64,000 nt of DNA, from contig OZ024750.1 of assembly GCA_964016885.1 (NCBI GenBank), positions 10,540,001 through 10,604,000 of the forward strand, read 5' to 3'. The notes beneath the pieces are model-generated. The model was given only the letters and a program-made list of their open reading frames with translations. It was not told the DNA's origin and made no database searches. This stretch comes from Eledone cirrhosa. Lineage: Eukaryota. Positions within the stretch are counted from its first letter, which is position 1; each line of letters starts with the position of its first letter. The translations under genes were made by a program, and so were the position numbers. This document shows, piece by piece, positions 8,096-58,923 of the stretch.

Positions 8096-8896
8096 CATGG
8101 AACTCTTTTAACAATCTTTTAACCATCTTTTGATCTTATATATTATGTATACTCCAGTCCTACAAACTGTAGAGTGCTTCTTATCCGATATCTGCATTGC
8201 TTTATTGTACTACAATAAAACTCACCTCCTACATTATATATATATATATATATATATATATATATATATATATATGTGTGTGTGTGTGTGTGTGTGTGGG
8301 TGTTTGGGTGTTTGTGTGTGTGTGCTATGTATGTATGTAAGTATGGGCAAATAAAAACCTGGTCTGGGCTAAAAACATTTTGAGGAAAACCGACGTAAGA
8401 CCCGCACAGGTCTACAAAGACATTTAAATATCCAGAGCCCAGGAAATTTAACAACATCGTGTCACTTCTGGTGAGACATACTTGTACTATTTTAATAGAA
8501 ATTTCAAACACCTGTCGGAGCCCTAGAAAAGCACGTCTGACGAGAAGTGGTCAAATGGTGGTAACATAAACAAAATAAAATACACTGGAAAAACTTTACT
8601 TGGTTTTCTGTTGTTTCATTTGCCATCAGTTGACCTTCGTATTTTCTACATTCTACTGGCTTTTAAAAAAACTTATCAGTCATTTACTACACACCTCACA
8701 ATGCTTTGTATTAATTATACTATTCTATATTTATAAATATACATATATATAAATATACATATAAATATACATATATAAATGCACACACACGCACACACAC
8801 ACACACACACACACACACACACACACACACACACACACACACACACACACACACACACACACACACACACACACACACACACACACACACACACAC

Positions 8897-9275
8897 TTTG
8901 CTAAAAGGTGGATGAATATGACGAGAATGGTCCGTGTGAGTGGGCCTACTCTGACCATGCGGCTATAGGCTGGCTAATTTGAAGAGGAGAGGGGTGCTCT
9001 CCCTGGGTGCCCTAGAAGCGCAGGGTGGTTCATGATTGGTGGGGAACCTGAGTCACCCTTGGGTCGTCAACCCCTCCCTATTGGGGAATTTATTTTGTTA
9101 TATTTATGCATAGTTTATTTTATATTTTTTATATCTTCATTGTTAAATTAGTCTTGCCATTGTGCACTTTTACTCGAGCTTATTGTAAACCCCCACTGTC
9201 CCCGTCTTTGTATTGTCCCCTACATGTCGGCCCTTGTGGCCAATAAAGGAAATTATCATTATTATTGTTATTATT
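8897..9275 (+). mobile_element. Second Tx1/L1-type LINE 3' end, different subfamily, with (ATT)n tail
   Basis: FAKRWMNMTRMVRVSGPTLTMRL* aligns to FYERWVKVARMARVNGPSLYIRL* at 3648-3719. The 3' UTR shares CCTCCCTATTG and TGTAAACCCCC, and AATAAA lies at 9242. Confidence 0.7.
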
Positions 9276-9276
9276 A

Positions 9277-9668
9277 AGGGCCCATGCTTTGCAGTATAGA
9301 GTTATGGCCCTTTACGTTCTGAGTTCAAATCCCGCCGAGGTTAGCTTTGCTTTTCATCCTTCCGGGTCGATAAAATAAAGTACCAGTAATGTACTGAGAT
9401 AATTGCTGGCCTTGTGCGAAAAGTAGAAACAGTTATTATTATTATTATTAAGGGAGGTGGTTCGGCAGTATCGGTAGAGCGTCAGACACCATGCTTTTCA
9501 GCACAGAGTTAAGACCCTTTACGTTCTGAGTTCAAATCCCGCCGAGGTTAACGTTGTCTTTTATCCTTACGGGGTCGATAAAATAAAGCACCAGTAATGT
9601 ACTGGGGTCGATTTAATTGACTTTCCCTTCTCCCCAAGTTACTGGCCTTGTGCCATGCTAGAAATTAT
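9277..9668 (+). mobile_element. Two adjacent SINE S1 copies (9277-9435, 9449-9668)
   Basis: Two B boxes GAGTTCAAATCCCGCC, two central domains and two tails. Confidence 0.9.
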
Positions 9669-10062
9669 TAAAGCCGGTACAGTGTTACTTCATTTAAACG
9701 AGTTATTTAATTCTCAAGTTATTCTGTGCTATGTTTATATATATATATATATATATATATATATATATATAGATATATATATATATATGTGTGTGTGTGT
9801 GTGTGTGTGTGTGTGTGTGTGTGTGTGTGTGTGTGTTGATGTGTGCATGTATGCGGATAAGGGTGTTTATATGTGTGTGGATGCACATCAATTAGCTCTT
9901 ACAAAATTAACGAATAAAGGAAAAACAACAACAACAACAACACAGCTAGACTGAATCAATATAGAGTATTCAGTGATATTATATTCGTTTTTGTTTTGTT
10001 GTTGTTATTATATGATGAAGCTGGCTGGTGTTTCCTTGCTAAACAACACAGTAGTGCATAAA

Positions 10063-10250
10063 TAATTGTTTCTACTTTTGGCACAAGACAAGCAATTACC
10101 CAGCATTAGGTACTTTATTTTATCGACCTCGTAAGGATGAAAGGCAAAGTTAACCTCGGCGGGATTTGAACTCAGATAATAAAGGGCCGTAACTCTATGC
10201 TGCAAAGCGTGGCGTCAGACCCTCTAGCGATAATGCCAATCCACACCCTT
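10063..10250 (-). mobile_element. SINE S1 with 16-bp TSD
   Basis: Full reverse copy. GTAGTGCATAAATAAT occurs at 10051-10066 and 10251-10266. Confidence 0.92.
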
Positions 10251-10657
10251 GTAGTGCATAAATAATGAGGCGGAATTTGACTCATCGTTAGAACTGCTAT
10301 TGATACGGTTGAATCTGCTTTACATTGCCACTGATGCTTACATAGAAGCTTTTCAATAGGTCGATGCTGTCATTGATATTTTATCTCACCCAATAGAATT
10401 TCAGAATCTCGACCCTGATTCTGCAGACTGGAATAGAATGTTTAAAAAAAAAAAAAAATGCATGTTACCATAAGAGGGTTTCTTTTTTATTCTGTTTTGA
10501 TAATGACTTTTTATCTGTGTGTGTGTACGTGTATGTCCCCCCCCTCTCTCTCTCTCTGTAAGTGTTTGTGTGTATCTCTGTGTGGTGTATATATGTATAT
10601 CTCTACCTCTATCTATTTCTTTCGTTATACACACACACACACACACACACACAAATA

Positions 10658-10761
10658 TATAGGGTGTCCCCCAAAAATGTATACACAATTTGATTACCAG
10701 TACAGGCAATATTTATTAGAATGCATAGTCTTTGTGTATACATTTTTGGGGACATCCTGTA
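10658..10761. mobile_element. ~100-bp Tc1/mariner MITE (family U)
   Basis: TIR TAYAGGGTGTCCCCCAAAAATGTATACAC and its reverse complement. Other copies at 26777-26879, 26952-27054 and 41231-41345. Confidence 0.88.
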
Positions 10762-56351: not shown

Positions 56352-56506
56352 AGGAACAAGTAAGACCCCGACGGCTGAGCTCAAGCCGTTTCGACGGCTA
56401 ATTCTGTACAGAATTAGCCGTTCCTATTACCCACTCTACTACCTTTAAGTATTGAGTACTTTGGTGCGTTATGGCCCACCTGGTTCCTTACCACATTTCC
56501 TTCGTT
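56352..56506 (+). mobile_element. Family B insert, internally deleted palindrome
   Basis: CGGCTAATTCTGTACAGAATTAGCCG centre plus tail. Confidence 0.85.
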
Positions 56507-57944
56507 ATATATATATATATATATATATATATATATATATATATATATAGGTGGTGCTGTTAAGTTAGACATGGCCTAGGCCAATACTGGCCGAAACCTA
56601 TCAAAGTTATATATATATATATATATATATATATATATATATATATATATATATGTATATGCATGCATATGCATACCTTATCTATCTATCTACACACACA
56701 CACACACACACACATATATATATATATATAGGGTTTCATAGATATTCGCCTGGCTTGGTACAGGCCAGAAGACATTTAGTGCACTTGTGGCTTTCAAGAA
56801 AAATAGCGCGTTGTACCGAATGTCAAGTGGGTTAATATAAGATTTATATATATATATATATATATATATATATATATATATATATATGTATATATATATA
56901 TATATATATGTATATATATATGAATTAAGACATAGAATACAACATGAGAGAAACTGTCTTCAAAGATTTAAGATAACATGCATGCATATGCGCAGTATAG
57001 TATGTGTTAACTTAGGAGTGCCATTATATGTATGAATAAATATGTATACACACACAGACACACACACACACACACACACACACATATATATATATATATA
57101 TATATACACATATATACACACACACATATATATAAATATATATACACACATATATATATACATATCTCTACACACACATGAACGTATATATATATGTAGG
57201 TATAAATATAGACTTATATATATATATATATATATATATATAGATATTTATATATGTATAAGTATGTGTGTGCTTGAGTGTTTGTATGAGTATATAAATA
57301 TTCATAGACACGTGTGTTTATATATGACCATGGACGTACGAATGTACACATATATGCATTTTTTGTTGGCACGAAGGTCTGAATATTAGTTCATATATGT
57401 AGATAAGTATGTAAATAATCTGGTATAATTATAGAGAGGCACACTCATATCTTTTCAATATTCAGTTGCAGTAAAAGAGGCGGTGCTCTCGAGCTTTGCA
57501 GCTTCTCCTAGAATGACACACACACACACACACACTGGCATTTCCACATCATAAACACACACACTGGCATTTCAAGATAATACACAATCACAAATACACA
57601 CTGGCATTTCAACATAAACACATACACACACACTCACACACAGTTATATATATATATATATATATATATATATATATATATATATATATATACACACACA
57701 CGCATACCTATATGATAAATGTGAAGCTCGGAATAGAGAAGTTAAACCTGTTTCGAATGCATACTTTAGTTTACCTTTGATTTGCACATACAAACGCATC
57801 TATCTATCTATCTATCTATCTATCTATCTATCTATCTATCTATCTATCTATCTATCTATGTCTCCCTCTCGGATCTAGCTGTCGAAACGGCAGGAGCTCA
57901 GTCGCCGGGGCCCTGACTATTTCCCAATATATATATATATATGT

Positions 57945-58177
57945 GAAGGCGTGTGGCTGAGTGGTTAGAGAATTGGATTCGCAGTCTTGAGGTTGTGAGT
58001 TCGATTCCTCGACCAGGCGATACGTTATGTCCTTGAGCAAGACACTTTATTTCACATTGCTCCTTCTACCTGGAGTTGCGACCGATAGATAGTATTAGCA
58101 ATTGGAAAGACCGATGGAAACATTGTTTCCTCGGTCCGATTTGACGAAAGTCGATCGATAAAAAAAAAAAAAAAAAA
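57945..58177 (+). mobile_element. SINE S2, full length, with poly(A)
   Basis: A and B boxes, same body as 23864-24069, and an A-rich tail. Confidence 0.92.
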
Positions 58178-58274
58178 TATATATATATGTGTGTGTGTGT
58201 ATATATATATATTTATATATATATATATATATATATATATATATATATATATATATATATATATATATATATAT

Positions 58275-58668
58275 TAGAAAGTGAGGTTTTTTTACAAAAT
58301 GAAAAATAACCGAGGTGTCCTACACGAGTGAAAGTATAAAGAAAAAAAGATGAAATCGAAAATGCAACTGGAGTCTATTTAAAAAAATATATATATATTT
58401 ATTTGGTTCCTTTACCGGTTTCGCAGTTCTTCTGCGTTTCAAGAGTAGAGTTGAGATGGAGGGTCTGTGGTTTCTCTCACATCTGATGTTTTTCTCACAT
58501 CTGTGGTTTTTCTCACATGAGATGTGAGAAAAAACACAGACCCTCCATCTCAACTCTACTCTTGAAACGCAGAAGAACTGCGAAACCGGTAAAGGAACCA
58601 AATAAATATATATTTAAAAAAAAAAATAAGAATCCAGTTGCATTTTCGATTTCATCTTTTTTTCTTTA
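58275..58668 (-). mobile_element. Fold-back insert (family S), ~330-bp palindrome with hammerhead right half
   Basis: Arms at about 58337-58483 and 58520-58668. GCAG AAGAA CUGC-GAAA-CCGG-UA in both arms. Confidence 0.8.
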
Positions 58669-58720
58669 CACACACACACACACACACACACACACACACA
58701 TATATATATATATATATATA

Positions 58721-58923
58721 GGAACGAGTAGGACCCCTATGGCTGAGCTCAAGCCGTTTCGACGGCTAATTCTGGACTAAATTTAGTCCAGAATTAGCCG
58801 TAGAAACGGCTTGAGCTCAGCCGTCGGGGTCCTACTCGTTCCTATTACCCACTCTACTATCCTAAGTATTGAGTACTTTGGTGCGTTATGGTCTATCTGG
58901 TTCCTTACCACATTTCCTTCGTT
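58721..58923 (+). mobile_element. Family B insert with a loop-less 122-bp palindrome
   Basis: Centre CTGGACTAAA|TTTAGTCCAG at 58781/58782. Arms span 58721-58842 and the tail runs to 58923. Confidence 0.92.

Follow-up and report, generated by a model that had tools for sequence, protein, structure and literature searches.

In the genome of the octopus Eledone cirrhosa, a short motif, (T)YGAGTRC, recurs near the ends of small insertions in (TA)n microsatellites, and our analysis suggests that it is one strand of a predicted bulged RNA stem in the leaders of Penelope-like retroelements (PLEs) of the Hydra clade. The stretch in which it was noticed (GenBank assembly GCA_964016885.1, contig OZ024750.1, positions 10,540,001 to 10,604,000; 64 kb of a 3.0-Gb genome, hereafter "the window," whose own numbering we use) is dense in (TA)n tracts with short inserts, often of fold-back form. 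The stem stands twice in the leader of full-length elements, and most insert ends lie a few bases ahead of one of the two hairpins; the pair therefore likely marks where the element's enzyme starts copying its RNA. The elements, their hammerhead ribozymes, the fold-backs and the optional tails are already known; new, to judge from the literature searched, are the doubled stem and its tie to both insert ends.

The predicted stem consists of RCUC, an inner stem-loop, a bulge of two nucleotides (nt) on the 3' side that begins with U, GAGY, and then an unpaired RC. An RCTC that can pair with GAGY lies upstream of each hexamer in the families treated here, and the inner stem-loop between them varies in length. 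The outer pair is A-U in families A, B, P, Q, and G and G-C in families C and F, a compensatory switch between octopus families. A small hairpin formed around the hexamer by itself does not hold in C, F, and G, and the RCUC partner took its place. The structure pattern matched the window 27 times, against 2.2 in block shuffles; 20 of these matches are genuine, six being mirror arms of family B fold-backs and one bridging two elements.

The pairing was examined in related marine elements from metagenomes (78 loci, the best 78 of 410 relatives), with sites chosen by the 3' anchor and the nearest GCTC alone, inner pairing not being required. A GCTC partner accompanies 66/78 anchors. Where the stem has a 2-nt 3' bulge, the first inner pair is Watson-Crick in 64/65, with C-G and T-A both common, as compared with at most 20 Watson-Crick pairs in registers outside the helix; the mutual information of three successive inner pairs is 0.85, 0.68, and 0.84 (0/2000 permutations each, relatedness uncorrected). 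The bulge reads TT in 42 stems, TC in 15, TA in 8, and otherwise in 1, so that U stands first in 65/66. An Rfam covariance search with five loci carrying both copies returned one unrelated match (E 0.38, far below the gathering score), and in an Rfam scan of the window the 150 matches listed of 498 were of microsatellite type and below gathering.

In full-length leaders the order is hammerhead, copy 1, copy 2, ATG, with the stem present twice in B, C, F, P, and Q. The second copy was first noticed in C, P, and F, just past the end of the tail and before the ATG; predicted beforehand for other families, it later turned up in B, 6 nt beyond the long end, and in Q, 8 nt beyond it. The motif described in the original prediction is copy 1, inside the tail, and copy 2 is missing from truncated inserts because it sits just beyond their 3' junction. 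Among 40 non-redundant metagenome leaders, 37 carry a copy (14 one, 21 two, 2 more) and 3 none, two or more copies thus occurring in 23/40; the controls gave 2/40 inside the open reading frames (ORFs) and 182/4000 in shuffles, while the antisense strand of the leaders, which shares the self-complementary stem, has a copy in 15/40 and two in 2/40. The two copies are 55–70 nt apart in 19/23 leaders, and the copy nearest the ATG lies 19–56 nt before it in 32/37.

This last position would also suit stems that regulate expression, by translation feedback, elongation or leader splicing, with the ends lying nearby only because A/U-rich linkers precede structured RNA. The linkers 5' of the stem are A/U-rich, the bulge resembles the arginine sandwich of TAR and 7SK (PMC6189040), and the tail of family F (L162:5150-5390), at about 184 nt the longest, with a 60-nt inner loop in its copy 1, has, by eye, branch-point, pyrimidine-tract and AG features like the acceptor end of an intron. 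We nevertheless regard regulation as an improbable account of the ends: leaders contain many other TA sites, yet the ends cluster at two positions with a 5–11 nt offset in seven families, and the splice-like features of F do not recur in C or P. A regulatory role could coexist with a docking role.

Measured against the (TA)n, insert ends are bimodal in each family, 5–11 nt upstream of copy 1 or of copy 2 (offsets counted from the start of the TA run, at loci that come from similarity searches and are not a random draw). Family B (n=118) has 42 ends at 8 nt before copy 1 and 56 at 6 nt before copy 2; P (n=39) has 10 at 7 nt before copy 1 and 22 at 6–8 nt before copy 2; F (n=49) has 19 at 9 nt before copy 1 and 17 at 7–11 nt before copy 2; and A (n=23) has 5 and 11 at the two positions. 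For Q (n=56), 10 ends are at 7 nt before copy 1 and 19 at 8 nt before copy 2, with 19/56 "ends" that map to non-element flank of the reference kept in the denominator. In C, 20/25 ends are at 6 nt before copy 2, the short end being 6–9 nt before copy 1, and in G 7/12 are 5–8 nt before copy 1. Counted from the end of homology, with the shared TA included, the gap in B is 3–5 nt. The metagenome elements use either copy, with 15/20 mappable ends within -4 to +6 nt of one (20/40 rows were left out as contig ends or because homology reached the query end). In contigs of two sequencing runs from one study, loose TA ends occur at L249:786 and 866, 5 and 3 nt before the copies; the sample may be the one behind the assembly, and these ends are not treated as independent evidence. 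Across 30 family B fold-backs the ends are fixed and the centres variable, and single fold-back inserts carry both ends. The tail corresponds to the spacing between the copies, 71–184 nt in this genome and mostly 55–70 nt in the metagenome elements, as would follow if each copy set one start.

The same geometry, with ends 5' of each copy and the motif excluded, fits stems that cause the RNA to be cut or to terminate just 5' of them, so that two RNA 3' ends are then copied by end-primed reverse transcription, and the original prediction had named 3' processing among the possible roles. RNA-seq read ends do fall at the start sites of a Poseidon element (PMC11167929), whose internal initiation on uncut RNA has been shown in vitro in the same work; moreover, a cut at copy 1 would lose copy 2 and the tail, yet single fold-backs carry both ends. 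In vitro initiation and the two-ended inserts make RNA cutting quite unlikely.

For the Poseidon element PAc of Anolis, reverse transcription begins at two positions inside the RNA, which delimit the tail, and depends on RNA 3' of these starts but not on hammerhead cleavage (Frangieh et al., 2024, PMC11167929). It seems to us reasonably probable, from the sequence patterns described here, that two candidate protein-docking stems on the Hydra-clade RNA likewise set two internal reverse-transcription starts; the doubled stem sits where a Poseidon-type 3' signal should, and each stem may therefore dock protein and set one start. Of the roles offered in the original prediction, recognition by the reverse transcriptase (RT) is thus the one we favor. 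Each copy would dock the element's own RT-endonuclease, and copying would start a few bases upstream of that copy. A read-through RNA, from a tandem or pseudo-long terminal repeat (pseudo-LTR) arrangement, would carry both copies, and the protein would bind each stem, perhaps via an arginine at the U-first bulge. The endonuclease would nick (TA)n DNA and each nick would prime internal reverse transcription 3–9 nt before a copy, in many cases where a few U/A bases match the target. Priming at copy 2 would yield an arm with a tail containing copy 1, and priming at copy 1 an arm without a tail; two such truncated complementary DNAs (cDNAs), primed on opposite strands of the nicked (TA)n, would join head to head into fold-back inserts.

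A bolder proposal, which we find possible but doubtful, is that two tandem TAR-like arginine-binding stems each load one RT-endonuclease protomer priming one strand of the cut (TA)n, so that one RNA leader would program both insertion ends, the tail and the head-to-head fold-back would be its immediate trace, and placing a 30-nt stem behind any RNA would suffice to fix a TA-targeted insertion end. In 114 proteins of the clade, R35 is present in 91% and R37 in 100%, within an N-terminal RWK helix; a tie between the arginine-sandwich layout and these near-invariant arginines is a lead only.

Several observations weigh against docking stems as the explanation. Counts of G-U versus A-C pairs lack a strand signal (3 vs 3, 3 vs 1), and because of this RNA is not proven over single-stranded DNA. 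The paired motif might instead be recognised by the endonuclease in single-stranded cDNA or in a genomic copy and cut just upstream, the ends arising from resolution of the intermediate. Besides the missing G-U bias that would be expected for RNA, this is in line with the tail being ascribed to endonuclease cleavage in PMC8557442, with the Drosophila virilis Penelope endonuclease having needed the tail to recognise plasmid DNA (PMC11167929), and with ends at TA-like sites, the endonuclease target. We still think a DNA-level signal unlikely: the inner spacer can be as short as 4 nt or longer than 60 nt, and its covariation is that of a helix, for which recognition of duplex DNA would have no use; the product of each end lacks the copy that marks this end, as for a template-side signal; and Poseidon tail ends arise in vitro as RT starts (PMC11167929).

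To return to the docking stems, the remaining difficulties concern their stability and their distribution. The stems have little predicted stability (z -0.4 to -2.4), the P and A copies have a minimum-energy fold other than the bulged form, and the covariation counts include related sequences and the split between copy 1 and copy 2. Five of the 20 metagenome ends are off, by 8, 13, 27, 46, and 62 nt, and several of the 20 come from related families. In family A the second site is a hairpin that lacks the bulged GAG and has one pair exchanged, although the long end is still sharp; the search for a continuation of family G gave 0 matches; and the continuations of B, A, and Q were retrieved with patterns containing RCTC, each then running into the ORF start. 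Published Hydra consensus sequences, judged by eye, gave clear copies in 3/6, a variant in 1, and none recognisable in 2. Untranslated regions of Neptune- and Penelope-type elements from this genome gave 0 matches in eight stretches at six loci (8.9 kb in all); tails are described for all PLE clades (PMC8557442), so that the motif cannot be a universal cause of tails.

As to the motif itself, all 11 strings cited in the original prediction are where it placed them, and the positional and strand enrichment that it expected is borne out. YGAGTRC lies 25–75 nt upstream of a (TA)n edge and points toward it in 16/137 window flanks, as compared with 3 in the opposite orientation and a mean of 0.88 in shuffles (max 7, n=1000); in 280 kb elsewhere in the genome, sampled at round coordinates, the figures are 14/337, 2, and 2.0 (max 7, n=300). 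The enrichment is therefore more than chance, though a single family contributes many of the matches. Plain GAGTRC shows less strand bias in the 280 kb (18 vs 11) because family B carries the palindrome GAGTACTC. The distance to the downstream junction, put at 30–60 nt, is in fact 43–108 nt by family (C 43–44, A 47–49, G 46, B 52, P 63, Q 69, F about 108 nt), and the tight anchor is the other, upstream end, 5–10 nt away, rather than the 3' junction. That such a signal acts in cis on the strand of the ribozyme, 3' of the hammerhead, is supported. The structure pattern is found at 7/11 cited sites, one of them (18442) only via a distant, doubtful partner. Of the four so-called orphan inserts, that at 31108 is a true member, while 14981 (which has no (TA)n within 2001 nt downstream), 23668, and 17516(-) lack a pairing partner, as does the decayed family A copy at 26291.

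These weaknesses, namely window counts dominated by family B (9/20 genuine structured matches) and 4/11 cited sites without the structure, are what one would expect of a chance hexamer inflated by repeat copies; a core-promoter motif or transcription start, as also offered in the original prediction, could appeal to the internal promoter in the 5' untranslated region of Penelope (PMC8557442). The stem is doubled, covarying, and kept between elements whose proteins are about 40% identical, and a chance origin is largely refuted. Transcription start is unlikely because the CCAAT and TATA-like boxes of family A (by eye) precede the hammerhead and lie a long way 5' of the motif; together we rate chance and promoter readings as very improbable. 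Other candidates tried and dropped were a splice donor or acceptor, whose features are not common to the families; coding constraint, as the ATG of every one of the six full-length families lies downstream of the motif; a tRNA B-box, the consensus of which does not fit the GAGT forms; and a TATA box in family B, where the stretch is within hammerhead stem II.

The families had been taken as otherwise unrelated. Judged from their coding sequences, all five (A, B, C, P, and Q) represent 3' ends of Hydra-clade PLEs, each being linked to ORFs of this one clade. Longer P, Q, and C copies extend upstream into one type of GIY-YIG-type endonuclease, full-length copies were located for F, C, P, B, A, and Q, and A, P, and Q continue into the same ORF type as B and C; because all run into one ORF type, the families are related and the inserts are pseudo-LTR and tail fragments, an arrangement already described for PLEs. 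The shared signal of the original prediction is supported, but the unity is one of descent within a clade and the hexamer is only the 3' strand. The assignment uses published motif diagnostics together with pairwise identity to locus L303. A single ORF with RT and C-terminal endonuclease is seen in the 717-amino-acid (aa) ORF of B and the 709-aa ORF of C, by alignment and model, and RW[KR], DKT, CxCx5C, CxxC, and CxH, the Hydra diagnostics in PMC8557442, all occur in both, with CxxC and CxH flanking a conserved E and N; copy L161 of family F lacks CxH, and RW[KR] is also present in the N-termini of A, P, Q, and F. Insertion into (TA)n, another Hydra character, is shared by these families. Locus L303, whose hammerhead matches the row that is printed for Penelope-1_NV, shares 39% identity with family B over 709 columns, as against 27% over 214 columns for a Neptune-type ORF; the Neptune characters (CX2-5CxxC linker, DKG) are absent, the motif-bearing families having CxCx5C and DKT, and an assignment to Nematis was dropped since the diagnostics in PMC8557442 point to Hydra. 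The family B protein model (predicted local distance difference test 93) has TERT as its best Foldseek match (E 3.8e-8). In a Pfam scan of the family F ORF, RVT_1 and GIY-YIG gave no match, and a GIY-YIG search of the genome returned mainly Neptune-type elements rather than the motif-bearing clade. Hammerhead cores are canonical in A, P, Q, and G and CAGAAGA in C, and family B apparently has a U3-A8 variant (by eye; PMC4209133).

Family B has its ORF in tandem 3531-base-pair (bp) units. Head-to-tail arrays with a period of 3531–3543 bp occur at G000:C1:437200347-437210965 and C1:91476605-91487263, and two neighboring units in L249 have open 717-aa frames (one at L249:957-3107) that differ by one residue, so that the family is likely recent. 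Its hammerhead (L249:688-770) combines the apparent U3-A8 core variant with a long stem II. Most family B inserts fold back within this stem, upstream of the cut site, suggesting copying of uncut RNA that stalls in the ribozyme. Family C has CAGAAGA in place of CUGANGA (28446-28469(-), 28538-28561, and 11234-11257(-) in the window) and, despite this core, many full-length copies at 94–98% identity.

In the window, copy 1 of family B is best seen at 58851..58876(+), as ACTC, TACT..AGTA, a TT bulge and GAGT AC, beginning 8 nt after the short-end position; it lies in a fold-back insert in (TA)n (58720..58922, +) with an inverted short arm, the 3' half of a hammerhead (58803-58825), and a tail reaching the long end at 58922. 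The others are at 11442..11467(+), with a TC bulge and the cited site 11462, at 43515..43540(+), with the cited site 43535, and, by the structure pattern, at 20999..21024(-), 31250..31275(-), 38200..38225(-), 50403..50428(-), and 56433..56459(+), with a last one at 60509..60534(-), just past the end coordinate of the original prediction. Copy 1 of family P at 8151..8177(+) (ACTC, CAGT..ACTG, TA bulge, GAGT GC; cited site 8172) belongs to a fold-back at 7373..8234(+), which has an inverted short arm from 7373, hammerhead cores at 7426-7472(-) and 8033-8079(+), and its long end at 8234; a second copy 1, at 43202..43228(+), matches the pattern in a tail-only insert (43193-43285). Family Q has copy 1 at 48644..48665(+) (ACTC, CAG..CTG, TT, GAGT GC; cited site 48660), within the fold-back 47892-48728. 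Family C shows the compensatory outer pair at 14632..14679(+) (GCTC, a long inner stem-loop, TC, GAGC CC; cited as 14670-14679), with further copies at 17764..17815(+), 44564..44611(+), and 28350..28397(-), the last within the fold-back 28313-28599. Family A matches the pattern at 30868..30888(-) and 37422..37442(-); its subfamily inserts at 18338..18491(+) and 26149..26334(+) have the 3' strand at 18442 and 26291, with a doubtful pairing partner in the first and none found in the second, which has a hammerhead core at 26204-26226. The "orphan" at 31108 is in the tail of family G, a further Hydra-type family, at 31092..31113(+) (ACTC, GTCC..GGAC, a 1-nt T bulge, GAGT GC).

The window also holds elements of other kinds. 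The sequence at 58274-58667 is the fold-back end of a Neptune-type element with a near-complete copy at L061:2809-5622(-), which has a 938-aa open frame and two pseudo-LTRs; its ORF has DKG and the element is without the RNA motif. The leader of this copy has a hammerhead-like CAGAAGA core leading into a GT donor-like site, with no bulged stem; some 55 nt short of the 3' end there is also an acceptor-like TAG. Ends of two more Neptune-type families, at 37547-37629 and 21168-21327, match L060, L064, L065, L068, L074, and L075 and L051 and L058, respectively. A hammerhead family at 28941-29262, 14208-14553, and 29900-29960 (core 28986-29013) has a tail without the bulged stem and a GTGAGT donor-like site about 60–70 nt before its end, and a further hammerhead fold-back at 12816-13015 (core 12861-12908(-)) has a decayed GAGC form of the motif at 13005-13012. 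The GAGTAC at 16928 is part of a related hammerhead core, outside the stem. The TCGAGTAC of another repeat (16998-17406 and 39039-39675) faces away from the junction and is a coincidental match; we take this repeat for the 3' end of a long interspersed element in (AT)n. In a hammerhead-like family at 18034-18233 and 37148-37347, a different element, GAGTGC is on the opposite strand, 10–15 nt from the junction. The short interspersed elements in the window are presumably akin to the octopus OK type.

PLEs are the closest retroelement relatives of telomerase, and the stem may bear on how they recognise their RNA and why the tail is optional. Published accounts of the tail differ, invoking endonuclease resolution (PMC8557442) or two RT starts (PMC11167929), and the parts of the literature consulted define no RNA recognition signal for PLEs. 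Neither the searched Penelope-element literature (largely open-access, with figures and Repbase notes outside it) nor Rfam describes the doubled stem and its tie to both ends, and the passages available from PMC8557442, PMC3846280, PMC4209133, and bioRxiv 10.64898/2026.07.22.740005 give no account of a doubled stem. The doubled stem is a short, clade-wide, covarying candidate signal at a fixed offset to both ends, and it gives sharp predictions, in that the stem can be mutated, rescued or moved; the apparently intact, young family B with its tandem 3531-bp units offers a test system. The stem pattern is also a simple way to find and delimit Hydra elements, which are very abundant in this genome.

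The Hydra clade inserts into (TA)n, and an octopus family is among its members (Craig et al., 2021, PMC8557442). As described in the passages of that paper available to us, the clade shares with our families the C-terminal GIY-YIG-type endonuclease with RWK, DKT, CxCx5C, CxxC, and CxH, (TA)n targeting, a pseudo-LTR hammerhead (predicted in our families, with a canonical core in A, P, Q, and G), inverted truncated copies and the optional tail, but those passages do not describe a conserved stem 3' of the hammerhead, they give tails of 30–40 nt rather than 71–184 nt (mostly 55–70 nt in the metagenomes), and the octopus family B units, at about 3.5 kb, exceed the typical <3 kb.

The likeness of the stem to the arginine sandwich is probably convergent. 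The upper stem of TAR has the same letters as the stem here. The HIV-1 TAR and 7SK sandwich (Pham et al., 2018, PMC6189040) has in common with it a pyrimidine-first bulge preceded by a Watson-Crick pair (U first in 65/66 and a Watson-Crick pair in 64/65 of the metagenome stems) and followed by a G-C and then an A-U pair, and a U:A-U triple like U23:A27-U38 could form. The likeness is in secondary structure only, and here the loop closes the other side of the bulge.

PAc is comparable in its two internal starts bounding the tail, its need for RNA 3' of the starts, its A/T-rich target and its independence of hammerhead cleavage (PMC11167929), and the inserts here also extend upstream beyond the hammerhead cut site. 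It belongs to another clade, it starts inside the ORF in an AC-rich stem-loop, and no binding motif is defined for it in the parts of PMC11167929 consulted, where the short RNA stretch legible in Fig. S1 lacks such a motif. In the elements described here, it is the leader that carries the signal, and it does so twice. Structured RNAs also fix the start of reverse transcription in other systems, the RT-docking signals including the R2 3' untranslated region, hepadnavirus epsilon, and elements of telomerase RNA, and the family B protein model is itself closest to TERT. What would set the Hydra-clade stem apart from these is that it lies 3' of the start, is uncopied at that end, and is present twice, giving two starts per insertion.

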